NCBI GenBank assembly: GCA_002269645.1
Contig: NIVC01001430.1
Span: forward strand, 226,119-290,118
Length of the DNA stretch: 64,000 nucleotides
DNA from: Macrostomum lignano
Taxonomy: Eukaryota
Reading direction: 5' to 3'
The notes beneath the pieces were generated by a model that was given only the letters and a program-made list of their open reading frames with translations, was not told the DNA's origin and searched no databases. Positions 29,326 through 64,000 of the stretch are shown in pieces. A program made the translations under genes and the position numbers. Each line of letters opens with the position of its first letter. Position 1 is the first letter of the stretch.

Positions 29326-29993
29326 CATTGAATAATTGTAGGTGTGTGTTGGCGACGCCCCCGTCCCTAGAGCTTCAAATGCTTGAATGACGAGATGACC
29401 ATGATAAATCTCTTTTTATAGGTTTTAATAAATATTTTGTTTCCGGCTCCATTTTGACTCTTACGATCAATTCACATCCTCTTTACCGACAGCGGTCTCA
29501 ATAATTTTAGCAAGCACTGAATCCTTGTCACTAACTTGTCCATCAGCACATGTTGCAAAATTAATTTGCACAAATATTGCCGAATGAGGCGATGGCAAGC
29601 AATAATCGGAAAGCCCAATAACTGCATGCAGCCCCAAACCAAAGAGGGTTTTTACTTTGGGTACCGCCCTTGTTTACTTCTGTGAGAAATTACTGGAAAA
29701 TGAGTGTATTTAAACAAACGTATTGACAGTTTGGAACTCAGACGCATTGTTGGTTCAAATTGAGCGAAGTACGACGTATAACCTGTATTGTAAGTATGAC
29801 AGAAGCAAAAAATGTCTAAAGATTTCAAAGACTACACCGGTAAGTACAGAATATATTTTCAACGTTCGAACTCTTTAACTATACCCATAGCTACATGTTT
29901 CTGTAAAGTTGCTATGGATTTAATTAATGAAGCTCCCCGAAGATTTTATTTATCAAAATATTTTCTAAAATTTTAGCCTATCGAGAATTTGAG

Positions 29994-37765: not shown

Positions 37766-38151
37766 TGTGACGTTGTCAGTTTAAGTAGTCCCGCCACCTT
37801 CTGGTCCCGCCTGGCTTAGCGTCCCCGCCTGTAGACTCTTGCCGCCTTTACTTGTTTAATTGCCTTCTCTCTCTCTGCCTCGCTTCGCCACGGCTTTAGG
37901 CCACGCCTCTGCCACTCTCAGCCACGCCACTTCTACTACCTATCTATCTAACTCGTTGTTGTGTAGCCGCCAGTGCATCGTTACGATTCCAACCTGTACT
38001 TTTGTTGACAATAAACCAAGCCTGCAGCCATTGATCGCATTAGCATTAACTTTAACTGATATTACGGCCAAGTGCTACCGCTACAAATTTGCCTCTGCCG
38101 CATTCATTTGCCTTCGCTTATTCTCGAGGCCGCCAAACTAGTATCGTCACA
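37766..38151 (+). mobile_element. 3' LTR (386 bp) of the Gypsy element
   Basis: Polypurine tract AAGAAGGAG just upstream, terminal inverted TGTGACG...CGTCACA and an internal AATAAA. No matching 5' LTR in the window. Confidence 0.8.
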
Positions 38152-38620: not shown

Positions 38621-39672
38621 GGACTAACTAAACTAACTAACTAGTTAAAGGCTTATTAACTTTGTTATTTTTTCTTCTCTTGTTCTAATTTTTTCGCTGT
38701 TCTGCACTAGCGATTTCACGGCCATTTCTCCCGTCGTAAGATATTTCATGGCCCAGCCATTAAATAAAATGCGTTACATACTATGCCGACTCGGACAGCT
38801 GACGAAATAAAAGGAATAAAAAAGAGAAGAAACAATACAATTATTGACGCACAATTCAAAGAACTTCCTCTTCGCAGTCTGCGAGACGGGAGAGTCTCTC
38901 TCTGACTGTCATTTGTTTGAACTTCTAAGCATAAAAACATAAAACGATGGGGTATATTGTTGTCAACAAACATTTCATTAGAAAAAATGGGGGGACGCTT
39001 TGGCATTCGACCGATAAGCAGAACTATGAGCATATGAAACCTTGAGACCCAGTGATCTTTGTTGGATAACTCATGAAAGCTTTCAAAAGGCAAAAACGTT
39101 AGAAAGTAATCAGCAGCGTTGTACCTAAACAGTAGCAAACAGCTGAAAAAAGGGAAGATGCTGACAATAATAGTGCGACGCCTAACACCAAACTAGCGGC
39201 TCACTACCCAAATAAGACGAAGCTCGCATTGCCAAATAATACATTCGTCATCAATGTATTATGAATTCTTCGCTTCAAACATCAAAAGACATTTGACTTG
39301 ACGAATTGTGATATACAGCCCTATAACTGCTGTCCCAATCCTTTTTTCTTCTACACTAAGATTTCTTCCACTCGTCAATAAGAAAGAATGGAACCGCCCT
39401 TGTTTATTTCTGCGCTGGAATTAAAGAAGCGCATCTATTTAAGTCACTCAAAACTGGCTGTCCCGGATTTCTGCAATGATGCCACTTCCTACGACAACTG
39501 TAACATACTGAAATAGGTAACCAAAATGTCGAAACATTTCCCCAGCTATGCTGGTAAGTACAAAAAATGTTTACCTTTATTATTCGAATTTTCCGGTTAT
39601 CCATCTGGAGTCCTGAATTTTTGACACGGAAATTCCAAATTCGTCTGAAATATTTTAGCCTACCGTGAATAC

Positions 39673-41198
39673 ATGATGATTCGCAGCAACATGACATGGT
39701 CAGAGGATAGGATTTTAATCAATTTTCTCAACCTTCTGCGCAATGAATTGAAGCGAGATATTGAGTACCACTCCGGCATCGTGAAGGCTGTTGGATTTCC
39801 GCTGGGATTTCTGCTTCAAATTCTCACGATAATCTTTCTAGTCAGGGGGCAGTCTGGCTACTCACAGTCAGCCAGGAGCTGGTTCTTGGTCGTTCTCAGC
39901 GCCGATGTCTGCAGCACGCTCTACCGACTGTACGAGCTCATTACTGTGGACTTCCAAAGCGCCAATCCGGACTCAAAGGAAACGCCTGGAATGGACTTCA
40001 TGCACCTAATGTGGGGTCTGATGCGTACTGAAGACAATGAGCTGCAGGAAGTGATGTGCAAGATATTCTTCTTCATCTTGTACTTCCCAGTGATTCTGTC
40101 ACCGGTGGCGCTAACAATCTGCTCACTGATTCGCACCTATGCGGTCAAGTATCCACTGAAAGCGAAGTTTGTACTAACGAAATTTCGCGACCGATGCCTG
40201 ATGTTATTAGCGGCCGGCATCTCGGCTGCTGCGTCGCTGGTTTTCTGCATGCTGCTAATTCAGGCGACATTTTTTCTTTTACCGTTCAAAATAACCACGC
40301 TGGATGGCCGGAAGATTTACCCTGGCCGCTGCAGCATGCCGGACTTCTCTAGTTTCAATACCAATAAAACCAATCATGCGATTGGCAGTTTAATCATGCT
40401 TGTCATCATATTCACTATCTGCGCATTGACATTCGTCTCATCCGTTATCATAATTATTGTCCTGTTTGACTCGAAGCGGAAACGTTTACAAATGGGCGTT
40501 GCTACGCACAATTCGAGCGAGAAGAATGAAGTTCGAGCGACTGCGATTCTTCTCGGCATGAACGTGTCGTTCTTTTTCTGCTTCCTGATGTCCAGAATCT
40601 GCATGGTTGTCAACACTCAAGTACACATATTTTACGACTACAAAGTGTGTAAGTAGTCCATACAAGTCTTGTGGATAATTTTCCTCCCTAATTTTGTAAA
40701 AAAAGATGCATGTATGATCTTATAAATCAAAGATTGAAAGGGAGTTCGATCGAAAATTTAGAAGAAGCGTACCCTTGGCATGGATTTTTCATTTGATCCT
40801 AGCTTATAATAATATAATTTTTCATGTGTACTAATTGTTTTGATCAGAAGGGCACTGGCATCTGTGGTTTTTGCATGCAATTTTGAGAGCTGAAAATTTA
40901 CCATGGAAAATTGCAAAGTTTTGGTCCTAATTAAACTTTTCGGTACTACACCAAACCCGTTTGCGTGCCGTTTCCTGTTTTATTGCAATCAGCATTAAAC
41001 TCAACGCTCTCATTTTCAGCTATTCTGACGGAAAAGTTCGCTGCATTCGCGTTCACCATTCCGTACTACACCAACGCTCTGTTCATAGCCGGATTATCGA
41101 AAAGATTCTACTACTTTTACATGCCCTGTCTAAAAAGGCTGGGTTCAGCAACATCAAAGAGCAGCTTGAATTCCAGCGGAAGTCAGAGGACTCTGTAG
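39673..41198 (+). CDS. Class A 7TM GPCR, paralogue 2, ~393 aa
   Basis: Exons 39673-40648 and 40993-41198, with the same intron position and phase as paralogue 1 and near-identical TM sequence. Confidence 0.85.
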
Positions 41199-42339: not shown

Positions 42340-43440
42340 AGATTTCCGCCGTCATGGCGCTGGATGATCATGGCACAAGCGCGCTGCTGTGCTAACACCA
42401 GACGGTCAGTCAGATTTTTTTGAGACATCGGCCTCTGGAGTGCTTCTGGGGAGATACGCTTGCGCCCTTCCTGTTCGTCCTGGTGCTTGACTGGGTGCTG
42501 CGGACTGTTCTACCTTCTAACGACGACGGCTTCCTGCGACGCGTGGGTCGACGCCAATCGGGGAGGCAGCTCAGCGTGCTTTTTTCTACGCCGACGATCT
42601 CGCCTTGCTGTCCTCGACCGTCGAAGGCGCCGAGCGCCAGCTGGACCGGCTGGGAAGCGTTGCGGCGAGCGTCGGCCTGGTGGTCAAAATACGCAGCTAG
42701 AAGACTGTCGTTCTCTGCGTGCCGGACGACATCGAGGCATAATGTAAATTATGCATCAGTCAAGCGAGGAGCGATCGTGGGGCGCTGAGCAACCGATCGA
42801 CGGTGGAGGGCCAGCTGGTGTAGTCCCTACTGATGAGTGTCTGGGCAGATGAGGAAGCTTCTGCACTGTCAGCAGTTCATCTACCTCGCGGTCTGCTGGT
42901 GCCTGACGTTCGCGAGGACCTGCGACGTCGTCACCGTGCATGGACTTGCCTGGGCTACCTTTCCGCTCCTGTGAGGGCTGTCCTGCAATCCGAAGCCCTG
43001 CCCGATCGCCAGAGGGCGGCGCTGTTCCAGCCGCGGTGATCAAGACCGTCCTGTTGTACAACACCGCGATACTTGTTGGACGCTGATGAAATCGCTCGAA
43101 CAGCAGGCAGGTCGATGCGGCGCACTCTTGCCTGCTAGTGCCACGTTCAAGATCGGCTACGATACGAGCACGTCATCAATGCACAGCACTCTATCGCAGC
43201 ACCGGCCTGTCCAGCCCCAGCGAACTGTTGAGCGGTTGGCGACTCCAGCTGGCGCAGGCCATATCAATCCGAGCCGAGTCGTACTGCCCGCAGCCGGTGC
43301 AGGAAGTGCTGCTGCTGACGCTGCAGGCAAACGGGGAGGACAGGCGCGCACTCGGCGTTTCATCGACTGCCTGCTGGCTGATGCTTGCGCCCCGCGGACA
43401 CTGTCGGCGGTGCGGCCTACGTTAACCGCGCCCAGGCCCC
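42340..43440 (+). mobile_element. Degenerate RTE-like LINE fragment (RT core to C-terminus)
   Basis: GDTLAPFLFVLVLDWVLR, YADDLALLSST and KTVLLY, spread over shifting frames. Confidence 0.85.
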
Positions 43441-48290: not shown

Positions 48291-49774
48291 TTGGCCTACA
48301 TAATATTAATAATTATAAATTATAATCATATAGTATAGTTGTTGGAACATTTTAAAATGTTAGGACCTAGGGGAATGGCAATAACTATAGATAAATATGA
48401 TGACTAGGACTAGGGCAGGGGTGGCATAAGGTATAGGCCCCTGGCCTTAGTCTAATTGGCCTAGATTATTGCAAAGCAAATAAAAGTTTGAATTTTCTTT
48501 GCTTAAAAAAATAAGGCTAATTATTTATTATAATAGTAGGGACATCAATTCCCTAGAAAATTTGCTTTCTAAGGACAAATTTTTTGCTCAAACCTTGGCT
48601 AGGGTCCCTAATAATTAATGTTTAGGCTTACAAATAAAAATATACTTATCCAATATTCAAATCCAAAAGATAGCCATAGATATGGTCCCTAAAATAAAAA
48701 TAGTCTATCTAACCCCTAGTATATATGTTCTGAATTTGCATTTGATTGTATAATTGCTAGTATAGTAACAATATCATGTAGAATATAGTAGAGATAACAA
48801 ACAAAGTAAAAACATTGCTAAATGCCATTGCTACCCAAATTGCAATGTGACTAATTGCCTGTCTACCATGCTTCCTACTTATTTAAATGCTTGGATGTAT
48901 GTCTGCTTGCTATACAAATTTTGTCAAATAGAATAGTCTACTATTTAGATCACTGTTTGCAGGCAGCATATATATAAGGGTTTCATAGTTGACTAAAAGC
49001 ACCCAAAGAAAGAATAAAAATAGTTTTACTCAATGTTTGACTATGTTTTCTTGTTTTAGTGACAGATTACAATAAAAACTTCTCAAAACAGCTAAATTTT
49101 TACTTCAACTTTTTTCTTAGATCCCTAATTGCCCCTAGTCCAAAAGCCCTAAAATTTCAACAATGATATAATGAATCATGATGCATAAGTCTATTTATAA
49201 GTCTATCTAGGCTATAGCCATAATTTACATCTACAAAGCAAATGGTAAATTGGAATAAGTCTATAATTATTTTTGTCTATTTGATTAGGCTTAATTTCTT
49301 TTTGACTATAAATCCATGTACTCTTATCTTATCAAACTTCTTAAAGCCTAGATATATTTATCAATTATCCTTTGTCCAATATTATGTTCCATAAAGCTAT
49401 TCTGTTTTATTGCACAAATTGTCTAAGCATAGGCCTAATTTAGACTATTCAATGTTGATATAGTGGCTAACATAGCAAAATGCTTGGCCTAAGATATAGA
49501 CCTAGCTTATGCCATGGGCAAAAGTAGAAGCTATTGCTATAATAAAAAAGAAAACTAAATCAAATAGAAAAATGATATCTATTATTATAATCTAAAGCTT
49601 ATATCTTCTTTCAGAGTCATAATTACTATATTTGTTGCTTCTCTAGCTAGTTGTATCTCCACTTTAAGATTTCTATCTATGCCACTAAAATACCTTAGGA
49701 ACAATATATCTCCCAAACACACTTCTGTGCGATCCAGATTTAACAGAGGAGGAGACAGCTGTCCTAACTTCCAG

Positions 49775-52700
49775 GCTGTCTCGTCAACAGCAGCACCAGC
49801 AACAGTCATCTCTGTTATCTGGCTGCGAAAAATGTTGCCAAAAAGACAATTGTCCAGTGACCAGGGTCCGCTCCGCTCAAGCAGTCTGTCGCCAGTGCTT
49901 TCTAGCTTATTGCACTCATCAATTTAGGGCCGGCTTTGGTAAAAGTCAGCTGATCAGAGCTGGGGAACGGGTCCTGGTTGGCTTCTCTGGCGGCAATGGG
50001 GCTTGTGCTCTGCTGCGGCTTGTTAAACAGGTATGTGTGTTCCCTGCTCCCTGAGCCCCCTGGTTTCACTGGCCTCTGCTCCCTGAGCCCCCTGGTTTCA
50101 CTGGCCTCTGCTCCCTGAGCCCCCTGGTTTCACTGGCCTCTGCTCCCTGAGCCCCCTGGTTTCACTGGCCTCTGCTCCCTGAGCCCCCTGGTTTCACTGG
50201 CCTCTGCTCCCTGAGCCCCCTGGTTTCACTGGCCTCTGCTCCCTGAGCCCCCTGGTTTCACTGGCCTCTGCTCCCTGAGCCCCCTGGTTTCACTGGCCTC
50301 TGCTCCCTGAGCTGGCACTCTCCTGAACCCCCAGCTTCCTGAGCTGGCACTCTTCTGAACCCTCAGCTTCCTGAGCTGGCACTCTCCTGAACCCCCAGCT
50401 TCCTGAGCTTGCACTCTCCTGAACCCCCAGCTTCCTGAGCTGGCACTCTCCTGAACCCCCAGCTTCCTGAGCTGGCACTCTCCTGAACCCTCAGCTCCCT
50501 GAGCTGGCACTCTCCTGAACCCTCAGCTTCCTGAGCTGGCACTCTCCTGAACCCTCAGCTTCCTGAGCTGGCACTCTCCTGAACCCAAGCTACAAGCGAG
50601 CCCTAATTCAACAATTGCACCGCCTGATGACTCACACGCAGGGCCTAGCGGAGTCAACCCATCGCAAGCTTCGTTTCACACCAGTTTTTGTGTACATCGA
50701 TTTCGCCACCGTGTTCAACGACAATGGCGACGGGCCCCTTTCCGGGCGACGGGCGGCTGTGCTCGAACAGTTCGACGCCCATCTGCCGGTTGAGTTCGAA
50801 AGGCACTGCTTGACTGCGGCAGAACTTCTGCCAGGTTTGTCCGAAGCCTTGGCCGCCATGACTGACGGGTGCGCAAATTAAATTTATCGATGAGTATGTT
50901 ACAAAGAGAAACACGTGGTACTCTAATCCGCTCCTTTTGTCACTCCAATCCACTCCCGTTTGTCACTCCAATCCGCTCCCGTTTGTCACTCCAATCCGCT
51001 CCCGTTTGTCACTCCAATCCGCTCCCTGTCACTCCAATCCGCTCCCGTTTGTCACTCCAATCCACTCCCGTTTGTCACTCCAATCCGCTCCTTTTTGTCA
51101 CTCCAATCCACTCCCGTTCGTCACTCCAATCCGCTCCCGTTTGTCACTCCAATCCGCTCCCGTTTGTCACTCCAATCCGCTCCCTGTCACTCCAATCCGC
51201 TCCCGTTTGTCACTCCAATCCACTCCCGTTTGTCACTCCAATCCGCTCCTTTTGTCACTTCAATCTGCTCCCGTTTGTCACTCCAATCTGCTCCCGTTTG
51301 TCACTCCAATCCACTCCCGTTTGTCACTCCAATCCACTCCCGTTTGTCACTCCAATCCGCTCCCTGTCACTCCAATCCGCTCATGTTTGTCACTCCAATC
51401 TACTCCCGTTTGTCACTCCAATCCGCCCCCTGTTTCACTCCAATCCGCCCCCTGTTTCACTCCAATCCGCTCGTTTTTGTCACTTTAATCCGCCCCTGTG
51501 TCACTCCAATCCGCTCCGTTTGTCACTCCAATCCGCTCCCGTTTGTCACTTCAATCCGCCCCCTGTGTCACTCCAATCCGCCCCCGTTTGTCACTCAAAT
51601 CCGCTCCCGTTTGTCTCCCCAATCCGCTCCCGTTTGTCACTCCAATCCGCTCCCGTTTGTCTCCCCAATCCGCTCCCGTTTGTCACTCCAATCTGCTTCC
51701 GGTTGTCACTCCAATCCGCCCCCTGTGTCACTCCAATCCGCTCCGTTTGTCACTCCAATCCGCCCCCTGTGTCACTCCAATCCGCCCCCTGTGTCACTCC
51801 AATATTACATTATTAATAGTACTCGTATTTTACTTTATTTAACAGCACCGGTTACCGCGAACTGCTGCACCGGTCCGTGCACCGGTGCCTAGCCCTGGCC
51901 AGTCGGCAGTTCAACTGCAGCCGAGTGCTCACCGGTGAGACAGCCAGCCGGCTGGCCGAGCTCACCCTGCGCAGCGTCGCCCAGGGTCGGCTGAGCGCCG
52001 ATTCGGGCGCATTCAGCGCCATCGCAGCTGGTGGCGTCTGCCAGGTGCGGCCCCTGCGTCAGCTCACTTCGGCCGAGACCGCCCTGCTGAGTTGGCTGGC
52101 CGCCGACGGCCTCATGCCGGTGTGTCCGCGACCGGCCGACCCGGACAGTCCGTTGTTGAATGACGGCCAAGGCGGCGGCAGTATACCGGGGGTGATTGCC
52201 AGCTTCCTGGGCGGACTGCAACAGGTGATCTTCCGGGTTTGTGGGTCAGTTAGTGAGTCCGTTAGTGGGTCATTGAGACCTTTAGTGGGTCACTAAGTCC
52301 GTTAGTAGGTCATTGAGTCTGTTAGTTGATCATTGAGTCCGTTAGTGTGTCATTGAGTCTGTTAGTTGATCATTGAGTCCGTTAGTGGGTCATTGAGTCT
52401 GTTAGTGGGTCATTGTCTCAGTTAGTGGGTCACTGAGTCAGTTAGTGAGTCATCGAGTCCGTTAGGGGTCATTGAGACCTTTAGTGGGTCATTGAAACCG
52501 TTAGTGGGTCACTAAGTCCGTCAGTAGGTCATTGAGTCCGTTAGTGGGTCATTGAGTCCGTTAGTGGGTCATTGTCTCAGTTAGTGGGTCACTGAGTCAG
52601 TTAGTGAGTCATCGAGTCCGTTAGGGGTCATTGAGACCTTTAGTGGGTCATTGAAACCGTTAGTGGGTCACTAAGTCCGTCAGTAGGTCATTGAGTCCGT

Positions 52701-53438
52701 TAGTGGGTCATTGAGTCCGTTAGTGGGTCATTGTCTCAGTTAGTGGGTCACTGAGTCAGTTAGTGAGTCATCGAGTCCGTTAGGGGTCATTGAGACCTTT
52801 AGTGGGTCATTGAAACCGTTAGTGGGTCACTAAGTCCGTCAGTAGGTCATTGAGTCCGTTAGTGGGTCATTGAGTCCGTTAGTGGGTCAGTCAGTGTTTG
52901 GATTGAGAGAAGCAGCAGGCAGGTAATTTAATGTGTTAACTTGTTTTATTTTGATTTTCTTTAGAATTTCCATAAGCACTACTTACTCCTAATCGGTTGA
53001 GTAGTATGCAATGTATAGTAAAAAAACTCGAATGGATCTTATCGATTTCTCTTCCCGCAGTCGTTCCCAGCCACGGTGTACAATATTCTGCGCACTGGCG
53101 AGAAACTCCAGTCAGACAGTGTGGCAGCGGGCAGCTCCTCGTCTGACTCTGCAGCCGCCGCCGCCACACCTTGTCCTGCCTGCGGTCTGTCGATGCAGCA
53201 ACAGCCATCTGGCGATGACGGTGGCAACGTCAGAAGCAATTGCAACGCTTTGCGAGCTCTTCGACTGTCGGAGAATCTGGCTAGATCCGGGGACTCTCCA
53301 GAGCCTTCGACTGCTGCTGCCGGTCTGTGGGCGAAGGAGGGCGGGCGCTACTGTTACAGCTGCTCTGTGCTGCTCAACGGCTGCTCGAAACGGGCCGTGC
53401 TTGAGGAGTGCCTGATTGATGCCGATGGCGCTGACTGA
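49775..53438 (+). CDS. CTU2: Cytoplasmic tRNA 2-thiolation protein 2 (CTU2/NCS2), 5' end unresolved
   Basis: Exons 49775-50030, 50642-50868, 51846-52224 and 53061-53438 (phases 0,2,0). Motifs CEKC, CRQCF..HQFRAGFGK..GERVLVGFSGG, RVLTGETASRLA, VRPLRQLTSAE, SFPATVYNILRTGEKL, CYSC. The frame is also open upstream to ~49700. Confidence 0.9.
50045..50590. repeat. Two adjacent 32-bp minisatellites in a CTU2 intron
   Basis: TGAGCCCCCTGGTTTCACTGGCCTCTGCTCCC (50052-50310), then GAGCTGGCACTCTCCTGAACCCCCAGCTTCCT (50309-50590). Confidence 0.95.
50925..51800. repeat. ~23-bp minisatellite in a CTU2 intron
   Basis: Unit TTTGTCACTCCAATCCGCTCCCG. Confidence 0.95.
52240..52895. repeat. ~20-bp minisatellite with higher-order blocks in a CTU2 intron
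   Basis: Unit GTTAGTGGGTCATTGAGTCC. Confidence 0.93.
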
Positions 53439-53486: not shown

Positions 53487-53520
<34 letters not shown>

Positions 53521-55325
53521 GATTTGGTTGATCAATTTATTGACTAAATGGTTGGTTGATTGATTGATTGATTGTCTAAATGGTTGATTGATTGATTGAT
53601 TGATTGTCTAAATGGTTGATTGATTGATTGACTAAATGGTTGATTGATTGATTGACTAAATGGTTGATTGATTGATTGTCTAAATGGTTGATTGATTGAT
53701 TGTCTAAATGGTTGATTGATTGATTGTCTAAATGGTTGATTGATTGATTGATTGTCTAAATGTTTGATTGATTGATTGTCTAAATGGTTAATTGATTGAT
53801 TGACTGTCTAAATGACTGATTGATTGTCTAAATGGTTGATTGATTGATTGACTAAATGGTTGATTGATTGATTGTCTAAATGGTTGATTGATTGATTGTC
53901 TAAATGGTTGATTGATTGATTGTCTAAATGGTTGATTGATTGATTGATTGTCTAAATGTTTGATTGATTGATTGTCTAAATGGTTAATTGATTGATTGAC
54001 TGTCTAAATGACTGATTGATTGTCTAAATGGTTGATTGATTGATTGACTAAATGGTTGATTGATTGATTGTCTAAATGGTTGATTGATTGATTGTCTAAA
54101 TGGTTGATTGATTGATTGTCTAAATGGTTGATTGATTGATTGATTGTCTAAATGTTTGATTGATTGATTGTCTAAATGGTTAATTGATTGATTGACTGTC
54201 TAAATGACTGATTGATTGTCTAAATGGTTGATTGATTGATTGACAAAATGGTTGATTGATTGATTGACTAAATGGTTGATTGATTGATTGTCTAAATGGT
54301 TGATTGATTGATTGTCTAAATGGTTGATTGATTGATTGATTGTCTAAATGTTTGATTGATTGATTGTCTAAATGGTTAATTGATTGATTGACTGTCTAAA
54401 TGATTGATTGATTGTCTAAATGGTTGATTGATTGATTGACTAAATGGTTGATTGATTGATTGACTAAATGGTTGATTGATTGATTGTCTAAATGGTTGAT
54501 TGATTGATTGTCTAAATGGTTGATTGATTGATTGACTAAATGGTTGATTGATTGATTGACTAAATGGTTGATTGATTGATTGTCTAAATGGTTGATTGAT
54601 TGATTGACTGATTGACTGACTAAATGGTTGATTGATTGATTGACTAAATGGTTGATTGATTGATTGTCTAAATGGTTGATTGATTGATTGTCTAAATGTT
54701 TGATTGATTGATTGTCTAAATGGTTAATTGATTGATTGACTGTCTAAATGACTGATTGATTGTCTAAATGGTTGATTGATTGATTGACAAAATGGTTGAT
54801 TGATTGATTGACTAAATGGTTGATTGATTGATTGTCTAAATGGTTGATTGATTGATTGACTGATTGACTGACTAAATGGTTGATTGATTGATTGACTAAA
54901 TGGTTGATTGATTGATTGTCTAAATGGTTGATTGATTGATTGTCTAAATGTTTGATTGATTGATTGTCTAAATGGTTGATTGATTGATTGTCTAAATGGT
55001 TGATTGATTGATTGTCTAAATGTTTGATTGATTGATTGTCTAAATGGTTAATTGATTGATTGACTGTCTAAATGACTGATTGATTGTCTAAATGGTTGAT
55101 TGATTGATTGACTAAATGGTTGATTGACTGATTGTCTAAATGGTTGATTGATTGATTGTCTAAATGGTTGATTGATTGATTGTCTAAATGGTTAATTGAC
55201 TGATTGACTGACTAAATGGTTGATTGGTTGGCTAAATGGTTGATTGACTGATTGTCTAAATGGTTGATTGATTGATTGACTGATTGACTGACTAAATGAT
55301 TGATTGATTGGCTAAAGGGTTGATT
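53485..55325. repeat. (TTGA)n-based compound satellite punctuated by TCTAAATGG
   Basis: Directly visible ~24-bp periodicity. Confidence 0.97.
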
Positions 55326-55745
55326 TGATATTGCATTGGTTACGAAGATGATTTATCTATTTACTTGATTGATTGTTGAGCTGACAGGCCGACTGAATTT
55401 TTAATTAAGGCAACCAGGATTGAGACTGATTTTTAAAAACATATTTAATGTGCTCCAACTGCATTCTTAATTTGAATTTTCGGTGTTTTGTCTATTTCTA
55501 TTTGCTGTACTTATATATTTATGGTAACTGTTGAAAATAAAAATGCTTCAATTTGAAAACTTCTCTTGACAAAGAAATTATTGCATATTTGAAAGTCGGT
55601 AACTTTTGTCTTGAGCAAATTTGTTTTTCTCAGCCGGCCAAAGATTCTGATTGGCTGCGTGCAGATCTACGATCTCGTATTAAATATGCACGCCTGAGCC
55701 GTCTCAAGAACTTCCATCTCATCTGCTGCGAAATCGTCAGCAACC

Positions 55746-55885
55746 ATGCCTTCGTGCAACAATGACTCGCGAAATTTCACTTCATCGTCAGCTGTTGAAA
55801 AACTGGCCCAGCCTCTGTTGCTCTTGTCCGGAGCTCTGCCGGCCGCTGCTAGCGCTGTGCTTGCAGTTATTGTGCATCGAAACAG
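55746..55885 (+). CDS. Putative first coding exon of a host membrane protein (GPCR-like N-terminus plus TM1)
   Basis: MPSCNNDSRNFTSSSAVEKLAQPLLLLSGALPAAASAVLAVIVHRNR has NxS/T sequons and one hydrophobic helix. Upstream TTTTCTCAG acceptor (~55633) and AG|GTGAGT donor at 55886. Confidence 0.5.
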
Positions 55886-56206
55886 GTGAGTAGTATTATT
55901 AAATTACACGCACCCCACATTTTTACATGTAAAAATGAATATAGTCCCCACCTACACTCGAACTGTAATACGCCTCCGTCAGTTCGAGCTAACGAACGAA
56001 ACGCAACTCGCCCAAGCCGGCGTTCGATAAGGTACAAATCTTAGCTTTCTTATCTTAATACGACACACTAACCAACACTAGCGTTCTCCCAAAAGAAATA
56101 TTGAATTCAAAGTCCAATTCTTCCTTAGCCTTGGCCATTTATTTCTGCAAAGTATATTTGACTGAATTCGCCGCAAGTCCATACGCATTAAAAACGAGTA
56201 AGCAAA

Positions 56207-56752
56207 TTACCGCAATCTAATACGCAGATAGTTCATCGCGAAAGAACGCAAACGATTATAACAGCGCTTAAACAGATTCTCGGCGCCACCACCACTAATC
56301 ATGCTCGCTAGAAAATCCTTCAAACCACCACCACGATGCAGTTTAAAGTATAAATAAAACAAAACCCATATACCACAGTGCAGACTTGTTGGTTCTTGAA
56401 TAGCAAAACGCGAATATTCCCAATTTCCCCCTCCACAATTCCGTATAAACCACCGACGTATTAACTCACATGGATTTAACCCCAAGGAATCGAAATACTC
56501 TCCCTTCCTAGAGCCCCTCCTACCCAACCTAAAACCCCCCACCCATAACAAAACCCAATGAGAACCCGGCAAATTTGAAGTATCGGTATTCACGATCAGA
56601 AAATAATGCCTTCTGTCTCTCGGGATTCGCGGGATACTACTCAACAAATCGACAGGAAAAATACCCAAAAAACAAACGTCTTTAAAACCGTTACATAGAA
56701 TAATCACAACACGTTGCAAGAACAAGTTCGTTACACCTTCGCCTCGCCTCAT
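56207..56752 (-). CDS. Adenain-like cysteine maturation protease, 181 aa
   Basis: NTDTSNLPGSHW, EYFDSLG and QEPTSLHCG give the His/Asp/Cys triad. The ATG overlaps the MCP stop (ATGA). AATAAA lies at 56138-56143. Confidence 0.92.
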   Translation of the reverse strand: MRRGEGVTNLFLQRVVIILCNGFKDVCFLGIFPVDLLSSIPRIPRDRRHYFLIVNTDTSNLPGSHWVLLWVGGFRLGRRGSRKGEYFDSLGLNPCELIRRWFIRNCGGGNWEYSRFAIQEPTSLHCGIWVLFYLYFKLHRGGGLKDFLASMISGGGAENLFKRCYNRLRSFAMNYLRIRLR

Positions 56753-58071
56753 TTCCAAGCGGTTCCTGGCACAACGTCCCGCAGTTCGGTAATCTGTAGT
56801 TGCTTGTCGAAAACACCACCGAAAATAACGTTATAGACCTCCGCTGTAGCCGTTCCAAAACGCATCTCCAGTCGGACATTCCCTTCCTTATACAATTGTA
56901 CCGCCGGCGCAACTCCCCCGTCAGATCCTAACGAATACGCGAGTATCGTATACCCTCCGTTGTAGTCCGCCATCGAGAACCCCAAATCCCGTCCTTGTAA
57001 ATACAAACCCAGTTGTTGACGCAGAGTTGTATACTCCTTTGCACAATCCCCTGTGAAGTCGAATTGACTAGGCCGTGTCGGTACCGCCTCACCATTTACG
57101 TAAACTCCAACGCTGATCAAATTCGCATGCACGAAATTGAACGGATTTGTCGCCAGACTTCCATTAAATGCAGTATTTCCAACGACTACCACCAGCAAAA
57201 GACGTGGCACTCCGCTCGGAAACAGATTTTCGTGCGTATGGCTTAACGACCCTTGCGGTATTGTGAACGTACCCAATGATAAACTGCGATGAGGGTACAA
57301 GGCATTATGGGTCTTCAAACCATGTGCATGGGCTCCAATCACACTGGCAGATGGCTGAACATACCGCAAACGAAGCTCCGCACTCTGAATCTCAACCTCG
57401 TAATCCTTTAACACTGCCTCACCAATCTGTGCGGCACTTAACACGAATTTGCTCTTTGCCGGTAGTAACTTTATCCGCAAAGGCGTCTTTGACAACAAAT
57501 ACCGTGGCTGACGAAATAGATCCAAAAACAAAGGCCCTGAAACCGTACAAGTTCTCCCACCCGCAATTAGTGCCTGTCGCTTCACTCGCCCAACGTTCGC
57601 GACGCCGGTGGCATTCATTTTTCCAGCAGTGTCCTTGTAAAATCCCCAGGCAGCCAATCCGCCGTCTTGTCCCAACCGACCATACTCCAAAAGCGTCAGA
57701 AGCATGGCCTTGTACGGATACATGAAGCTCCCGCCTTCAACGACCGTATCTCCTATCCGCAATTGCACGTCTTCGAACAGCGTACTCACCACCATGTTAT
57801 TCAGACAGACATAGTTTTTCGCAGCATCCACAGCCCCTCCACTCTCGTCTACTACTCGGATTCCAACAGTTAGAACTGTTTCTTGTAAGTCGACATACAA
57901 ATCTCCAGCCGGTACAATCTCGAACTCAATTGGCCCTCCTTGCGTAATCCCATGTTGAGGCTGTATATCCGTGTAGCGACTGTCCACAACACTGAATTGT
58001 ACTGGTGGGCTGTCAAATAACGTCAACTCACTTTTCAATCCAGCGACGTCAGGCCCCAACAACTGATCCAT
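56749..58071 (-). CDS. Double jelly-roll major capsid protein, 440 aa, intact
   Basis: KSELTLFDSPPVQ, GPIEFEI, MYPYKAMLLTLL, DLFRQPRYLL and NPFNFVH, all Polinton MCP motifs. Confidence 0.92.
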   Translation of the reverse strand: MDQLLGPDVAGLKSELTLFDSPPVQFSVVDSRYTDIQPQHGITQGGPIEFEIVPAGDLYVDLQETVLTVGIRVVDESGGAVDAAKNYVCLNNMVVSTLFEDVQLRIGDTVVEGGSFMYPYKAMLLTLLEYGRLGQDGGLAAWGFYKDTAGKMNATGVANVGRVKRQALIAGGRTCTVSGPLFLDLFRQPRYLLSKTPLRIKLLPAKSKFVLSAAQIGEAVLKDYEVEIQSAELRLRYVQPSASVIGAHAHGLKTHNALYPHRSLSLGTFTIPQGSLSHTHENLFPSGVPRLLLVVVVGNTAFNGSLATNPFNFVHANLISVGVYVNGEAVPTRPSQFDFTGDCAKEYTTLRQQLGLYLQGRDLGFSMADYNGGYTILAYSLGSDGGVAPAVQLYKEGNVRLEMRFGTATAEVYNVIFGGVFDKQLQITELRDVVPGTAWK

Positions 58072-58464
58072 CTACTTGCCAAACAAACTGAATAACTTTT
58101 TAGTCGTGGCGCTCGGCTTTTTCTTTTTACGTATGCGTCTAACTCGCCGACCACGTCCAACCTGTTTTTTTACCGCAGGTGTCTTTCTGCTTATACCCTT
58201 TTTCCTGACTCGTCGTCGCTTAACCACAACTGGTCCATCAGTAGTCGTCAATCTACGTTTCTTACCCATTCCAATCGTCTTCTTCAGGAAGCTTAAACCG
58301 CCCTCTACTAAATCCTTCCGAGCTCTACGTAGCACGGGATATATCACTCTCTCTGTTAAATTCGTCAAATATCCGTATCCCTCGTACACAGGTATCGAAC
58401 TCGACCCACCACCCGTCCGCGGCTGTGTACTAGGTCCCGAATAGAATGCAAAAACCGGATCCAT
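58072..58464 (-). CDS. Basic core-like protein, 130 aa
   Basis: Gly motifs (RTGGG, YEGYG, VEGG) and an R/K-rich C-terminus. Its TAG directly abuts the MCP ATG. Confidence 0.75.
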   Translation of the reverse strand: MDPVFAFYSGPSTQPRTGGGSSSIPVYEGYGYLTNLTERVIYPVLRRARKDLVEGGLSFLKKTIGMGKKRRLTTTDGPVVVKRRRVRKKGISRKTPAVKKQVGRGRRVRRIRKKKKPSATTKKLFSLFGK

Positions 58465-58493
58465 GAATGCCGAGCGAAACTATACGTCAAAAT

Positions 58494-59636
58494 CTACTTA
58501 AAGTGCTTTGCTAATACCCGTGCTGTCTCTTTATCTAGATCTGATTCAGCCAACCACTGACCTCTCGAGTCGGGCATTCCCTCCCACTTGACAAAATATC
58601 GCCTGCCCTTCTTCCCCATACGCTCAACACGCTCGACCCGATCAATTTTAACAACCTCCGCCTCAGGTTCAGCCACTAGAAGCAGTTCACCTTGGTTGAA
58701 TCGACCCTCCAACACTGTCGAATCGTCCTCGGGGTCTAACAGACCATAAGACGGTGGCTTCGTAGAATACACCCGATGAATTCGATACACCCTATTACTC
58801 CATGTCGTTGTGTAACCCTTCTCAAATTTTCCCTTTTGACGTGCAAGTCGTACCCAATCACCAACCTTAAAACGCGGAATAGGCCTCACATCGTCGCCAT
58901 ACAACTCCTCCCACACCATGCCCTGCAGATGGCCATCCGCACTCACATCAATGGGGCTACGACCATTTAAACTGCGGTGTGGAGAGTTATTCAACGCAAG
59001 CTCTAATTTTGGTAGAACATCAAACCACCGGGCCAGATTTCGAGTCCGAAATAGTCGTAGTAATCGCTCCTTCACGGTGCGTATCAATCGCTCAGCCATG
59101 CTCGCTTTGTAGGTACTCTGACTTACGAAAAATCGTACGCCCTCACGCTTTAACATCGACTGAGTTTCTCGCCCAAGAAACTCTCGACCAGCATCGCCTT
59201 GTAAGTACAGCGGTTTAAACCCCGTGCGGAATATCTCATACAATACACGGCTCACCTCACTTGGCTTCTTCGTCTTCAAAGCTCTCAAGCGAGCCAACCT
59301 AGTGAAACAGTCGACTAATACGAGGATGTACCTGTAACCACGGTTTTCGTCCTGATATTGCGGTAAGTCTGCCAAATCAATCTGCATTTGAAATTTTGCA
59401 ACGGGCGGTAGTTGTATTTTCGGAGTTTTGAACTTCCGATTCGACTTCTGGAACAGATGTATCTCCTTCGTCCTACGCACCCACTTGTCAACAACAGCCT
59501 TGGCTTTTTTTTGCGTTAACTCCGGATACCTCCGCCTCAAAACTCGTATAAATTGCTTCTTATTACCACTAAACGCAGTAGGGCGTTCCAAGTCGAAAAA
59601 TGCCACGTCCAGAAACTTAAAAAAAATCGCTTCCAT
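58494..59636 (-). CDS. Retroviral-like (rve) DDE integrase with C-terminal chromodomain, 380 aa, intact
   Basis: QIDLAD, QGDAGREF and MAERLIRTVK supply D,D,E. Chromodomain-like RYFVKWEGMPDSRGQWL. Confidence 0.93.
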   Translation of the reverse strand: MEAIFFKFLDVAFFDLERPTAFSGNKKQFIRVLRRRYPELTQKKAKAVVDKWVRRTKEIHLFQKSNRKFKTPKIQLPPVAKFQMQIDLADLPQYQDENRGYRYILVLVDCFTRLARLRALKTKKPSEVSRVLYEIFRTGFKPLYLQGDAGREFLGRETQSMLKREGVRFFVSQSTYKASMAERLIRTVKERLLRLFRTRNLARWFDVLPKLELALNNSPHRSLNGRSPIDVSADGHLQGMVWEELYGDDVRPIPRFKVGDWVRLARQKGKFEKGYTTTWSNRVYRIHRVYSTKPPSYGLLDPEDDSTVLEGRFNQGELLLVAEPEAEVVKIDRVERVERMGKKGRRYFVKWEGMPDSRGQWLAESDLDKETARVLAKHFK

Positions 59637-59663
59637 CCTCCGTATTAGCGGCTCTCCAAATTT

Positions 59664-59837
59664 TTATGATGCAGAACCCACATTAGTATTGCAACAGTTA
59701 AAACTTGCCTTTACCGTTACGTCTCCGTCAGGCTCCTCTGCGCGCAGTACGCGTTCCAATAAATTCGCAATGCAACCACCCTCCCCCAAAAAACAAATTC
59801 TAAAACGCTTGTACAACCACTGAAACACATTCGCCAT
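59664..59837 (-). CDS. Small viral ORF, 57 aa (below the ORF-track cutoff)
   Basis: MANVFQWLYKRF...ILMWGSAS. It fills the intergenic gap, and its ATG lies 34 nt downstream of a TATAAGCA motif. Confidence 0.5.
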   Translation of the reverse strand: MANVFQWLYKRFRICFLGEGGCIANLLERVLRAEEPDGDVTVKASFNCCNTNVGSAS

Positions 59838-59880
59838 CCCCAGACTCGATATATTTCACGTAAAATACAATGCTTATACA

Positions 59881-60552
59881 TTACGCTAGAGTCTCATAAT
59901 CTTCCAAGGCTTGCAAGTCCCCACCGCGCGACTCTGACTCGGGAGTAGGTTCCATGGGTGTTCCTTCCTCCAGAACGTTTCGCATATGCCGCCCTAGCAT
60001 CGACGGTGGAATTGATTCCCTGCGAAGCAGTGAGACGAAACGTTCCAGCTCTGCCGCCGGAGGCGATCTCCCTCGTTTCAATGGTTGGTCGCGAGTGACA
60101 TACTCTACTAGCTCGTCAAAATCTCCTCCTCCAATCTCATTCGCAGCACCTGTCAGCCTTGCCTTCAGACGGTCGAAACGTGGTTGTACATTACGGGGGA
60201 GTCGCCTCCCCTTCTCGGTCTCACCCTCCGTCGGGCCATCATGACCAACGGATGAGCGAACCTCTGGCGGGGTCTCACCATTCTTATTGTACAGAGACCG
60301 CGTTTGTAGCAACCGACTCTCCAAATCAGTTCTTTCCAACTGTGCGGTTGTAGGCTGCAGACTAGTCGATTCACCAATCTCCCGGTCAAGCCTATTCATC
60401 TCACCTTGCATTTCAACAATATTCTTACCCAAAGCGTCCACAGGTCCGTCCAATACTCCCGTCCTTCGCTCATCTTTCGACGTACATTCCAAATAAGCCT
60501 GCAACGGCAGCAAAACCATTCGCTGAAGAGTTCCTCCTCTATTGACTGGCAT
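59881..60552 (-). CDS. Viral protein of unknown function, 223 aa
   Basis: Intact ORF starting 1 nt after the upstream stop. RMVLLP N-terminal motif and a probable coiled coil. Confidence 0.75.
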   Translation of the reverse strand: MPVNRGGTLQRMVLLPLQAYLECTSKDERRTGVLDGPVDALGKNIVEMQGEMNRLDREIGESTSLQPTTAQLERTDLESRLLQTRSLYNKNGETPPEVRSSVGHDGPTEGETEKGRRLPRNVQPRFDRLKARLTGAANEIGGGDFDELVEYVTRDQPLKRGRSPPAAELERFVSLLRRESIPPSMLGRHMRNVLEEGTPMEPTPESESRGGDLQALEDYETLA

Positions 60553-60553
60553 A

Positions 60554-60991
60554 TTACCTACGCCGTCCGGCCCGAATTGCTCGAACTAGATTTGCCGTCC
60601 CCGCAGCCGTACCGGCCAATCCCGATGTAATCCCTAGAGCCGTGCCAATGGCTGGCAAAGCAGAAATTATCGGAGCAAGAAACGGCAGGAAACCACCACG
60701 CTGTACCAAAATTTCCTTCCTGGCTCTAGTTGATTTTTTCTCCTTCAACAATTCTTGTATCGGTTTCCGATAGCGTTCTAAACGTTTCTTGTCACACGAC
60801 TTTAACGGCACGCGTCCTTTTACGATATTCAAAAGAAACTCAACCAGGCAACGCACCTCGCCCGGACTTAAACTTCGCAGAAATCGCTTGCGCTGGTCCA
60901 ATCCCCGAAGCCTCGCGACAACTTGCAATAGGAAGGCACACTGGGACAATGATCGCGCGCTTTGTACGCTCTTTTCTGTCAGCCCGGTCAT
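60554..60991 (-). CDS. Core/pX(mu)-like precursor, 145 aa
   Basis: Basic N-terminal domain, then QRGG|FLPFLAPIISALPAIG...RRR, resembling adenovirus pX (MRGG|ILPLLIPLIAAAIGAVPG) and a conserved Polinton protein. Confidence 0.78.
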   Translation of the reverse strand: MTGLTEKSVQSARSLSQCAFLLQVVARLRGLDQRKRFLRSLSPGEVRCLVEFLLNIVKGRVPLKSCDKKRLERYRKPIQELLKEKKSTRARKEILVQRGGFLPFLAPIISALPAIGTALGITSGLAGTAAGTANLVRAIRAGRRR

Positions 60992-61035
60992 TGTCTATCA
61001 TGCCTTCTACTGATTCCGACTGTACTTGCTTATAA

Positions 61036-61440
61036 TCAATCGTCTCGTACCCTGAAGTGCAGCACAGCAATCACATGGCTTCCATCAGGGAAATTCAAAT
61101 CTTGCCCCCGTTGGTCGGCCAGACGAATGGAGATCTCATTAATGTAGCTCCGATTTGTCCGCAAGTAATATGGCGTCTGCAAAGCATTTCCGTCTCGTCG
61201 AAATATTCCGTTCTTTTCCTGGCGAAACTCAACCACGCGAAGTAGCGGAACCTGACGACTTCCAACCATTTGATATTCAACAATGTCGCTATAGCAGTAC
61301 ATGTAAACACTCCGCAGTATCGCTTCGGGTATTCTATCCAAATAGACCTTCGTCAGACCCCACGCACGATTTTTCCTCCAATACTCAACCACCTCCTTTA
61401 ACGTATCCCCGGCAGGCCGTATTACCTGCGTACTCTTCAT
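61036..61440 (-). CDS. Minor capsid (penton) C-terminal half, 134 aa from the ATG at 61440
   Basis: YSDIVEYQMVGSRQVPLLRVV...EISIRLADQRGQDLNF...VLHFR, a Polinton mCP signature. Confidence 0.85.
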   Translation of the reverse strand: MKSTQVIRPAGDTLKEVVEYWRKNRAWGLTKVYLDRIPEAILRSVYMYCYSDIVEYQMVGSRQVPLLRVVEFRQEKNGIFRRDGNALQTPYYLRTNRSYINEISIRLADQRGQDLNFPDGSHVIAVLHFRVRDD

Positions 61441-61991
61441 CCAGACGGCGAAACCAGGTTCCAAACAGCACGAAAATCGTACCAATTCGAATCTAATATA
61501 CCTGCCTCGTCCATTGCATTCGTTATGTTCGTCCAGGATTCACCCGCCGCATCCGCGGGTTGGGTGCGTCCGTCGTGAGCTGTCAAACCCCACGTACTGA
61601 AACCAAAGCATGTCAAAAAACTCCTTGGCAGTTCAATGCCCATACGTCGGCTGCCGGAATTTCGCAAATACCAAACATATGCTTTAGTAGCCGGCGTCCA
61701 CGACAAGTGTACCTCCAAATCATCGGCCTGCCAGACCTTACCCAAGAAGACTTCATCTGTTTTCTCGATAATTTTCTCGATGTTGCAATAATATATCACC
61801 TTCACCTCTTCTCGAAGTTCCGCCGAGGAAGTTTCCGCCGGCGGGCTGTTACATAGCAAATCCACCAAAGCCACTTCATACTTCCCAGCCGGCGCTAGAT
61901 TCAATGGTGTAGTTAGCCGCACCCGAAACTCGTGCGCAGAATTGGTCGGATAACTACGATCGTTTGACGGAATAAACACAAAGAAACTCAT
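61437..61991 (-). CDS. Minor capsid (penton) N-terminal half, 184 aa
   Basis: FFVFIPSNDRSYPTNSAHEFRVRLTTPLNL...YEVALVDL, a Polinton mCP N-terminal signature. Confidence 0.85.
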   Translation of the reverse strand: MSFFVFIPSNDRSYPTNSAHEFRVRLTTPLNLAPAGKYEVALVDLLCNSPPAETSSAELREEVKVIYYCNIEKIIEKTDEVFLGKVWQADDLEVHLSWTPATKAYVWYLRNSGSRRMGIELPRSFLTCFGFSTWGLTAHDGRTQPADAAGESWTNITNAMDEAGILDSNWYDFRAVWNLVSPSG

Positions 61992-62021
61992 AATCTCACC
62001 CCATAAGCTGTAGCCGCTTCC

Positions 62022-62735
62022 TCAAAACTTGCTTATAATATCCTCCTCCTTGATAGTCTCCGGACGCATATAAACAACCTGGTGAGTGTCACTCGGAAAG
62101 ACATTCGTCCGTATGCGTATCATATCCGGCGTGTCCTGTCGTAAGTCTATGAAGAGATAGCTGAAGGCCTTGTCACCCGTCGCGTCGTCATAAGCCTGCA
62201 CCAGAAATCTACTAGCTCGGGGGTACATCTGCCGACCCAAATGTTCAACGGCGCTACGATCCCTAACATTTCGGCTTAAACAGATATAACTCGTCGATAA
62301 ACTTCTTTTTCTTGCCTCAGGATCCGCAGGGTCAAACAAATTTTGGCACAAATAAAGACAAGTCAATGGCGTATGATGAGCCAATTTGGTGAATACAGCG
62401 GTAAAAGCGCGTTGCTTTGCAACTTCACCCTGCAAATCATCAACAACGACTAAATCGTGCGGCTTGAATCTAGCCAACAACTGATCGGGGAATCCCTGTA
62501 CGAAGTGACATTCGCCACTTCCACCCAATGTCCAACATTCTCGAACTCGTTTTTCCTCAGACGAATGTAACTCTGTACCGTGACACCAAATTAGACGCCT
62601 TGGTACTACTCGAAACAGACCCAAGCGCTCCCTTACCAGTCGAAGCACCCATTCAGTCTTTCCCGAATTCGAAGGACCTGCGACGATAAACGTCGAGTCA
62701 TGAGCAAATCGCAAGTCGAATGTACGCCTGTCCAT
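62022..62735 (-). CDS. A32/FtsK-like DNA packaging ATPase, 237 aa, intact
   Basis: Walker A GPSNSGKT, Walker B LVVVDD, then AHH, LCQNLF and YLFIDL. Confidence 0.93.
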   Translation of the reverse strand: MDRRTFDLRFAHDSTFIVAGPSNSGKTEWVLRLVRERLGLFRVVPRRLIWCHGTELHSSEEKRVRECWTLGGSGECHFVQGFPDQLLARFKPHDLVVVDDLQGEVAKQRAFTAVFTKLAHHTPLTCLYLCQNLFDPADPEARKRSLSTSYICLSRNVRDRSAVEHLGRQMYPRASRFLVQAYDDATGDKAFSYLFIDLRQDTPDMIRIRTNVFPSDTHQVVYMRPETIKEEDIISKF

Positions 62736-62736
62736 T

Positions 62737-63160
62737 CTAGGCACCCAAACGCTGTTTTACGTTCATAACACGGGATACCAGTTTTGCGGCCAAACGTTCC
62801 CCCACTTAGTTGTAGGATCCGCAGCAATCTCTCGAGCTCCTGCTTCGAGTTGTTGATCGGCCTTTGAACGCTCTGCCACGTCCGAGTGCTTCTCGTATGC
62901 CAGGTCGTGTAAGAGACACAATTTATCGAGCCGATTCTTCCCAGTATCGCCCCGCGCTAAACGTTCTCTCAATCTGGTCCCGGGGCGCAGAATTGGTAAC
63001 CCCCCGGCAAATGAAGCTCCCCTGGGAGATGATTTATTACCCAATTAACAATACCAAACCCCGTCTGACCTCGACGAGAAGAGATTTTCTTAGCTCGAGT
63101 CGACTTTGCTGCTGTCGAACGCACTCGCTTCTTCTTCTTCTGTCGGCCTTGTGTTCCCAT
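62737..63160 (-). pseudogene. Parvovirus VP1u-like phospholipase A2, two apparent 1-nt deletions (141 aa when restored)
   Basis: LHLPGGYQFC[G]PGTRL...LDKLCLLHDLAY...ADQQL. Restoring a G at ~62986 and ~62800 yields one ORF ending 1 nt before the ATPase ATG. Confidence 0.85.
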
Positions 63161-63303
63161 CCCACTTAATTGTACCAAAAGAACCAATTGCATTTGCTTA
63201 TACACACAGTGGTTAAATCACGAGCAGTATATTGTATTAATAATCAAAGTGACAAGCCGCCACCATTCCCACCACCGACCGACGGCTCCGGGCGTGACCA
63301 GCA

Positions 63304-63799
63304 TCACATGTTAGTGCTGCCCATGCCACCCGTCTCGCGAACCGCCACCGGCTCCGGTTGTCGTGCCACACCCCGGCAGCTGGCCCTCGCGAGCTCGACG
63401 ACTTCTACCGGGGCGTGACGCAGCGCTCCAGAATCAATTGGGCCAACGCTGGTGGCACACGACAGATGAACTTTCTCATCTGACGTGTTGTGCAGGATCA
63501 CGCGGTTCCCGTATAGTCCGGGTCAACCACGCCCCCGCACATTTAGGCCTCGGTTGGCCCAACTGGACCGGCTCGCTATCCGACCATGGTGCCCGGCGGC
63601 GGCAGCATCACCCGGAGGCCGGTGCGAATGATGGCCGTGTCAAAGGCCTTCACAGTGCGGTCTTCGCACGTGGTAGGTCGTAGCCACACCCACGGCCGTA
63701 GCTCGCGAGGCATCACTGCCCCGGCATCCGTGAGCACTACGCGCAGCGGGACGTCGAGCAAGAGTCGGAGCTCATAGTGGCTGCGGGATCATAGTTCAT
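63304..63799 (-). pseudogene. dut: Trimeric dUTPase with several frameshifts
   Basis: Motifs in order across frames: GYDL, IIRTGL, ASRSS, GVVDPDYTG, ILHN, RETGGMGST. Confidence 0.8.
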
Positions 63800-64000
63800 C
63801 TTATGCTTAGGAGGTTCTTCGTCCTCTAAAATAAGTCTAGTACTACCCGCGTAATCCTCGTCCGCAATCAAAAAAACTAAGCCTAGTACTAATCCCCTGC
63901 AACTGCCATCATAGGCCTAGAAAAACGAAGAGAAAGAAGGAAAGGCGGATTCTTGCATATACATTCGATAATTGCGCGCATATATTGTGTGCAGAAAAAG

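Follow-up and report, generated by a model that had tools for sequence, protein, structure and literature searches.

The right-hand end of a 64,000-nucleotide stretch of the Macrostomum lignano genome (NCBI GenBank assembly GCA_002269645.1, contig NIVC01001430.1, positions 226,119 to 290,118 of the forward strand; hereafter the window) carries a compact block of virus-like genes at positions 55889-64000. This block is one end, 8.1 kb in length, of a Maverick/Polinton element (class Polintoviricetes) inserted in a flatworm chromosome, and its gene content, state of preservation and relationships are described here. All visible genes lie on one strand, in the order dUTPase, phospholipase A2 (PLA2), packaging ATPase, penton, 145-aa open reading frame (ORF), 223-aa ORF, integrase, 130-aa ORF, major capsid protein (MCP) and protease. 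The minus strand of the region holds nine ATG-initiated ORFs of at least 100 aa, which cover 76% of its span; 200 base shuffles of the same region gave a mean of 0.43 such ORFs, with a maximum of three and a maximal cover of 13%. The features, with the evidence for each in brackets, are:

55883-55888, plus strand: six host bases left of the junction, a candidate target-site duplication (TSD) of which one side is visible (sequence)
55889-56206, no strand: candidate left terminus, AGTAGT followed by ~320 nt of non-coding DNA, a probable terminal inverted repeat (TIR) and subterminal region (motif uniqueness, GC skew)
56207-56752, minus strand: adenain/Ulp1-like maturation protease, 181 aa, intact, with His65, Asp88 and a Gln...Cys motif (motifs, weak PDB match)
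56749-58071, minus strand: MCP, double jelly roll, 440 aa, intact (homologues, AlphaFold model, Foldseek)
58072-58464, minus strand: 130-aa ORF, basic (28% Lys+Arg), immediately upstream of the MCP (open frame, composition)
58494-59636, minus strand: intact rve integrase of 380 aa, with DDE-type motifs and a chromodomain at its C-terminus (Pfam, NCBIfam, motifs)
59881-60552, minus strand: 223-aa ORF, intact (open frame)
60554-60991, minus strand: basic 145-aa ORF, C-terminal part like adenovirus pX, GGF site at about residue 99 (Pfam, Atlas)
61036-61440, minus strand: penton, C-terminal piece, 134 aa, in a different frame from the N-terminal piece and open from 61539 (homologues, profile, hhalign)
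61437-61991, minus strand: penton (minor capsid protein), N-terminal piece, 184 aa (profile, hhalign, tblastn)
62022-62735, minus strand: intact 237-aa packaging ATPase, A32/FtsK-like, with Walker A and Walker B motifs at residues 20 and 95 (motifs, weak Pfam match)
62737-63193, minus strand: parvovirus-type PLA2 gene, broken, three pieces in three frames (Pfam, motifs)
63304-63750, minus strand: severely disrupted dUTPase gene, its five motifs spread over three frames (Pfam, PDB, frame comparison)

Seven genes, together spanning ~5.2 kb, carry no lesion, namely those for the protease, the MCP, the 130-aa protein, the integrase, the 223-aa protein, the 145-aa protein and the ATPase. None of the nine element proteins looked up had an exact match in the protein collection.

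Uninterrupted genes

The MCP was identified only through a fold search, sequence searches against PDB and Pfam having returned nothing useful. Of 8000 candidates scored, 103 are homologous at E <= 0.001, and the top three, the unnamed proteins P0001, P0002 and P0003, match over the full length at 65%, 64% and 45% identity. Named homologues are proteins of fish (many of them F54H12.2-like), sea cucumber, snail and coral, at 29-35% identity, one of them bearing the name 'Major capsid protein'. An AlphaFold model built on a 78-sequence alignment (predicted local distance difference test, pLDDT, 91) resembles the capsid proteins of Singapore grouper iridovirus (Foldseek E 2e-17) and Sputnik (E 5e-17), superimposes on a capsid chain from PBCV-1 (Paramecium bursaria chlorella virus 1) with Z 28.3 and a root-mean-square deviation of 2.9 over 354 aligned residues, and retrieves viral capsid or scaffold proteins in all of its top 16 rows. 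The double-jelly-roll MCP, a hallmark of the Maverick/Polinton group, is thus present.

The integrase, a further hallmark, matches Pfam rve at E 5e-7, under the curated cut-off, and the NCBIfam IS481 transposase model at E 7e-14. Residues 338-371 match Pfam Chromo (E 1.5e-5), so that the protein has the C-terminal chromodomain that belongs to the definition of adintoviruses (Starrett et al.; PMC11071296). The 244-nt gap between the integrase and the 223-aa ORF contains a 57-aa ATG ORF (59664-59837, minus strand) with a hydrophobic start and a Cys-Cys motif, without a Pfam match. The adenain-like cysteine protease hallmark is represented by a predicted protein without a Pfam match, which weakly resembles African swine fever virus pS273R in PDB (E 0.039), with aligned NTD...HW and YFDS motifs. 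For the packaging ATPase, the Pox_A32 match in Pfam is weak (E 0.023) and the sequence search against PDB was uninformative; its Walker motifs point to the expected ATPase, and the A32/FtsK family label is a tentative one.

Three small ORFs complete the uninterrupted set. The 130-aa ORF, without a match in Pfam, NCBIfam or PHROG, is probably a PW/'cupiennin'-type core protein, given its position and a likeness in motifs. The 223-aa ORF, which also lacks matches in those three collections and whose Atlas leads all score below 0.9, is possibly PZ-like, to judge from gene order. The 145-aa ORF matches Pfam Adeno_PX over residues 88-134 (E 1.3e-4), and its top Atlas cluster (0.90, with a weak recognition score) is viral and belongs to Preplasmiviricota. 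It is presumably a PM/'GasderminX'-type core protein, to judge from the gene order in PMC8097293. In Mavericks, PW adjoins the MCP (PMC8097293).

Terminus

The AGTAGT at 55889 lies 318 nt beyond the last gene, at the point where GC skew turns negative, and the first 19-mer of the element from this position occurs only once in the window. A repeated (AGT)2 end motif is a Maverick/Polinton hallmark, here seen at one end, and is the most frequent end motif among vertebrate Mavericks (PMC8097293). The element likely terminates at 55889. The hexamer alone is frequent in the window (26 and 18 occurrences on the two strands, 44 in total), and no inverted partner arm or second TIR was found within its 64 kb; for these reasons a TIR at this end is presumed. 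The window likewise contains no second copy or solo end of the element and no gene for the protein-primed polymerase (pPolB); a TSD and pPolB are presumed to belong to the element. Every Maverick/Polinton hallmark that could be visible in the window was found in it.

The penton gene

The single-jelly-roll penton gene expected of the group is present, but in two frames. The C-terminal ORF has 724 homologues at E <= 0.001. A penton profile built from 88 listed homologues of 230-370 aa hits the window twice, with positions 1-74 of its 271 falling in the ORF at 61437-61991 (E 1e-11) and positions 174-261 in that at 61036-61440 (E 1e-37). The same assignment follows from hhalign, at 99.8% for the C-terminal piece and 97% for the N-terminal piece (residues 1-133 against profile columns 6-162), and from lenient tblastn, in which 62 of 104 listed homologues of 200-450 aa yield the N-terminal piece besides the C-terminal one. 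The model of one homologue, P0279 (pLDDT 95), resembles the mavirus penton (Foldseek E 6e-12) and also adenovirus penton bases. In this model both chain ends contribute to the jelly roll and enclose an insertion domain (about residues 52-164), so that neither piece would be able to form it alone.

A single break, if there is only one, must lie within 61437-61539. In the 99-nt overlap of the two frames, neither frame scores above shuffles against 81 homologues (18.9 versus 19.2; 18.5 versus 18.7), and the break therefore cannot be placed more closely. Programmed frameshifting was considered and set aside, there being no canonical slippery heptamer in the 61437-61539 overlap. Separately, six penton relatives of 600-650 aa (P0226, P0227, P0230, P0236, P0298 and P0338) match the penton pieces of the window twice, which suggests double-jelly-roll or duplicated penton-like proteins.

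PLA2 and dUTPase remnants

The PLA2 gene is interrupted near 62985 and near 62800. Its middle piece matches Pfam Phospholip_A2_4 (E 6e-4) at only profile positions 20-59 of 80; the block before it, with a calcium-loop-like motif, stands in a second frame and a tail motif of the PLA2 family in a third. No pX extension was seen before the ATPase, and searches of the pieces against PDB gave no useful match.

The dUTPase gene is more heavily damaged. One frame, read with X at its stops, matches Pfam dUTPase (E 0.0011) and PDB entry 3so2 (E 2e-9), each of the other two frames alone has no dUTPase match, and a 52-aa piece of the region returned only chance phage matches. Compared frame by frame with a phage dUTPase, collinear blocks switch between two frames five times, in a low-threshold block listing that includes many off-diagonal chance segments; a second comparator gives fewer blocks. 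The frame switches number at least five, and probably seven when motif 1 and an upstream block seen in the PDB comparison are counted; the five motifs were located by the patterns of the dUTPase family. The minimum break counts are one in the penton, two in PLA2 and five in the dUTPase, with none in the first 5.5 kb. A CTAGTACTA motif, possibly a viral promoter element, occurs as two repeats within window positions 63790-63900, upstream of the dUTPase remnant.

An earlier account made from the letters and translations alone, the sequence-only reading, had assigned this DNA to a Polinton/adintovirus, an assignment well supported by the fold, domains, gene set and end motif described above. It had also listed the MCP, integrase, protease, ATPase and both core-like genes as uninterrupted, and each is indeed open from start to stop. 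Its packed minus strand was borne out by the nine long ORFs, but its figure of about 12 is reached only by counting broken pieces. Its 'largely intact virion module' overstates the case, the penton, which was absent from its list, being in two frames, and the PLA2 and dUTPase that it added persist as remnants only.

State of the provirus and competing explanations

The functions of these genes are assigned by analogy with the family. In a complete relative, a protein-primed polymerase would copy the excised linear genome from the repeated end motif (PMC4028283, PMC8502044, PMC10748475), and the rve integrase would insert it with a 6-bp duplication, perhaps with the chromodomain as a reader of chromatin. 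An icosahedral shell would be assembled from MCP trimers and penton pentamers, the ATPase would fill it with DNA, and the protease would mature the core proteins, which are small and basic. PLA2 would help the virus to cross membranes on entry, and dUTPase would protect the DNA from uracil. The copy as assembled has no one-piece penton, PLA2 or dUTPase, and for this reason is read as a defective provirus, able at most to transpose, if its pPolB is intact, or to be complemented by sister copies. The insertion would be recent, since seven genes are unbroken; relaxed selection probably let the accessory genes decay, or sequencing errors account for part of the damage, and the penton would have taken one later hit. 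Some 96% of vertebrate Maverick loci are degraded (PMC8097293), so that a defective copy is the expected state. By the standard of the same paper, an 'intact' Maverick has all core ORFs uninterrupted, TIRs and a TSD; with its penton in two frames as assembled, the copy falls outside it. A young but defective provirus is on balance the most probable explanation, though with modest confidence. The youth proposed by the sequence-only reading is plausible in view of the seven lesion-free genes, but its suggestion that the insertion might make particles finds no support in the copy as assembled, with the penton jelly roll split and PLA2 broken. The disabling mutations that it named as grounds for discarding such activity, if confirmed by reads, are present in the assembly in the penton, PLA2 and dUTPase.

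Several observations weigh against this explanation. The protease and ATPase database matches are weak when taken alone, and the two penton pieces share an ATGA, in which the stop codon of the first runs into the start codon of the second, like the MCP/protease junction. Seven of the eight breaks fall in the right-most 12.7% of the 7085 coding bases (p = 4e-6 under uniform decay), and the breaks look like frame changes and not like stops within the blocks that match, a pattern that sequencing error would also explain. The clustering may reflect either decay of accessory genes with the core genes kept or sequence quality falling toward the window end. If the latter, the element would be a coding-complete Maverick with PLA2 and dUTPase, its apparent breaks being artefacts of long reads or of the consensus that become more frequent toward a collapsed or thinly covered stretch of the assembly. 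This explanation is less likely but not remote: the gradient of breaks runs in the direction it predicts, and the dUTPase blocks alternate frames yet match known dUTPases well. Against it, the ATPase is clean over 714 nt between the damaged penton and PLA2, accessory genes are also those expected to decay first, and the window end is not known to be a contig end. The host cohesin exons (~470 and ~230 codons) align in single frames with eight homologues, which argues that that part of the assembly is free of frameshifts, though it lies 45 kb away.

The ATGA junction is the starting point for a different explanation, in which this lineage naturally encodes its penton in two ORFs (184 and 134 aa) coupled in translation, whose products would pair as a heterodimer to make up one jelly roll, and only the accessory genes are dead. 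A frame running off by chance would end in ATGA from only 92 of 1480 start points (6.2%), or, with each stop counted once, in 7 of 91 cases in the intact genes; two other junctions in the element have 0-1 nt gaps, the split falls in a variable insertion region rather than within a conserved strand, and adintovirus pentons are architecturally plastic (PMC11071296). However, a 6% coincidence is weak evidence, 113 of 150 listed penton homologues are at least 200 aa long (37 being shorter), many matching both pieces as a single chain, and a search with the N-terminal piece found no close relative among 77 candidates of 106-340 aa. The overlap frames are no more like homologues than shuffles, as noted above, neighbouring genes carry many breaks, and no split penton appears in the accessible parts of the literature consulted, including PMC11071296 and bioRxiv 10.64898/2026.06.19.733378. 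A naturally split penton is accordingly improbable. A non-canonical element has about as slender a claim, whether as a related integrating virus that relies on a helicase or primase in place of pPolB or as a fragment that was truncated or wrongly joined. It would account for a window in which pPolB, a second TIR and a complete TSD are unseen, and in group 2 Maverick-Polintons pPolB is often replaced and a phospholipase is common (bioRxiv 10.64898/2026.06.19.733378), but the whole length of the MCP shows homology to F54H12.2-like Maverick capsids of fish and invertebrates, and the rve-chromodomain integrase, the protease and the (AGT)2 end are features of canonical elements. There is a similarly small chance that the locus represents a flatworm Maverick lineage combining a natural ATGA-coupled two-gene penton, each gene contributing part of one jelly roll, with a Beta-like capsid module of the fish type, a PLA2 that stands alone and a dUTPase, in which the right-hand breaks would be errors and the virus, with a two-chain vertex protein, would still function.

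Relationship to known Mavericks

The element resembles vertebrate Mavericks and Beta (Terrapene-class) adintoviruses (PMC8097293; PMC8502044) in the MCP family (29-34% identity to fish F54H12.2-like proteins), the (AGT)2 end, the integrase, penton, MCP, protease and ATPase, and a small basic ORF beside the MCP together with a small ORF bearing pX. Most vertebrate elements consist of two converging modules, those of Xenopus tropicalis having one strand (PMC8097293; PMC8502044), as do the visible genes of the window element. It differs from the vertebrate and Beta elements in its PLA2 and dUTPase remnants and in an MCP that lies outside the fish clade. In a quick MCP tree of 75 rows (74 of the 103 matches; no Alpha reference included, and a root placed for drawing only), the window MCP, P0001, P0002 and P0003 form a long-branch clade with a support of 100. 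Compared by MCP, none of the three records is near-identical to the window element.

Alpha (Mayetiola-class) adintoviruses and group 2 Maverick-Polintons resemble the element in a parvovirus-type PLA2 gene beside the ATPase and in the rve-chromodomain integrase. In contrast to them, the window PLA2 has no pX extension, pX being on a separate ORF, and no insect-named protein occurs among the 103 MCP matches. According to Starrett et al., PLA2X is typical of Alpha virion modules and GasderminX and Cupiennin of Beta (PMC8502044). The window element has many fish MCP matches and a pX-bearing ORF, yet also a PLA2 remnant. The combination of PLA2 with a capsid of the fish type would be a mild oddity, but swapping of modules is documented (PMC8502044, PMC11071296).

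Polintons of the same class have been reported from the same phylum, in Schmidtea mediterranea (PMC8532177) and as insertions in Rhabditophora (bioRxiv 10.1101/2025.04.19.649669). No description of a Polinton/Maverick in Macrostomum was found, in a search that did not extend to Repbase, most subscription papers, or the host tables of PMC8502044 and two preprints. The proposal that the lineage may be undescribed in this host gains from the lack of any identical protein among the nine and from a best MCP match that is unnamed and only 65% identical, but flatworm Polintons are already in print; the element is a new one within a known group.

Host neighbourhood

The element lies ~2.4 kb downstream of the host CTU2 gene, behind a 1.8-kb minisatellite. 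Two host genes were delimited in the window:

6184-11648, minus strand: cohesin subunit SA (STAG), with very long exons and minisatellite-filled introns
49689-53438, plus strand: CTU2 (tRNA thiolation), last exon matching Pfam at E 3e-8

The best named matches of the cohesin subunit are trematode proteins (69-70%), and a quick 20-row tree, made with 19 named matches out of the 120 listed, places it as sister to three trematode rows, with a Shimodaira-Hasegawa-like approximate likelihood ratio test (SH-aLRT) value of 99. By these sequence comparisons the neighbourhood is that of a flatworm, outside those digeneans. The layout, with few introns and many minisatellites, might suit a free-living, Macrostomum-like worm. 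The introns of CTU2 are largely tandem repeats of 20-66 nt.

Directly left of the element, window positions 55690-55894 form a 200-nt GC-rich stretch (53%) behind AT-rich DNA (32%), without a Pfam match in any of three frames. Across the junction the sequence CAG|GTGAGT resembles a consensus splice donor, to which the element supplies the closing part with its first three bases. The insertion may thus have occurred at an exon edge.

Elsewhere in the window, two near-duplicate long-exon ORFs of rhodopsin-family G protein-coupled receptors (GPCRs) lie ~10 kb apart on the plus strand (29931-30974 and 39649-40656), the first matching Pfam 7tm_1 at E 4e-7. Between the two copies is the degraded pol of a long terminal repeat (LTR) retrotransposon (35600-37800, plus strand), whose reverse transcriptase (E 8e-15) and RNase H (E 6e-20) are in separate frames. 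By eye, fragments at 19602-20264 and 42396-42788 (plus strand) resemble the reverse-transcriptase ends of non-LTR retrotransposons, the first without a Pfam match. Minisatellite arrays with periods of 15-480 nt occupy 79-2990, 21827-22798, 28224-29021, 33513-34489 and 53487-55281 and give long spurious ORFs, and a short TTAGGG run is present at 32259.

Implications

Young, near-intact Mavericks are common in animal genomes, and a specialist would see in this element a further example. No virions have so far been observed for animal Mavericks (PMC8097293; bioRxiv 10.64898/2026.06.19.733378), and piRNA control is documented for planarian Polintons (PMC8532177). A coding-complete flatworm copy would suit a search for both particles and piRNA control, which the window copy as it stands does not offer. 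Its value lies in its unusual gene order, in the pairing of PLA2 with a capsid of the fish-Maverick family, and in the host context that it provides for a divergent capsid clade otherwise known here from three unnamed records.

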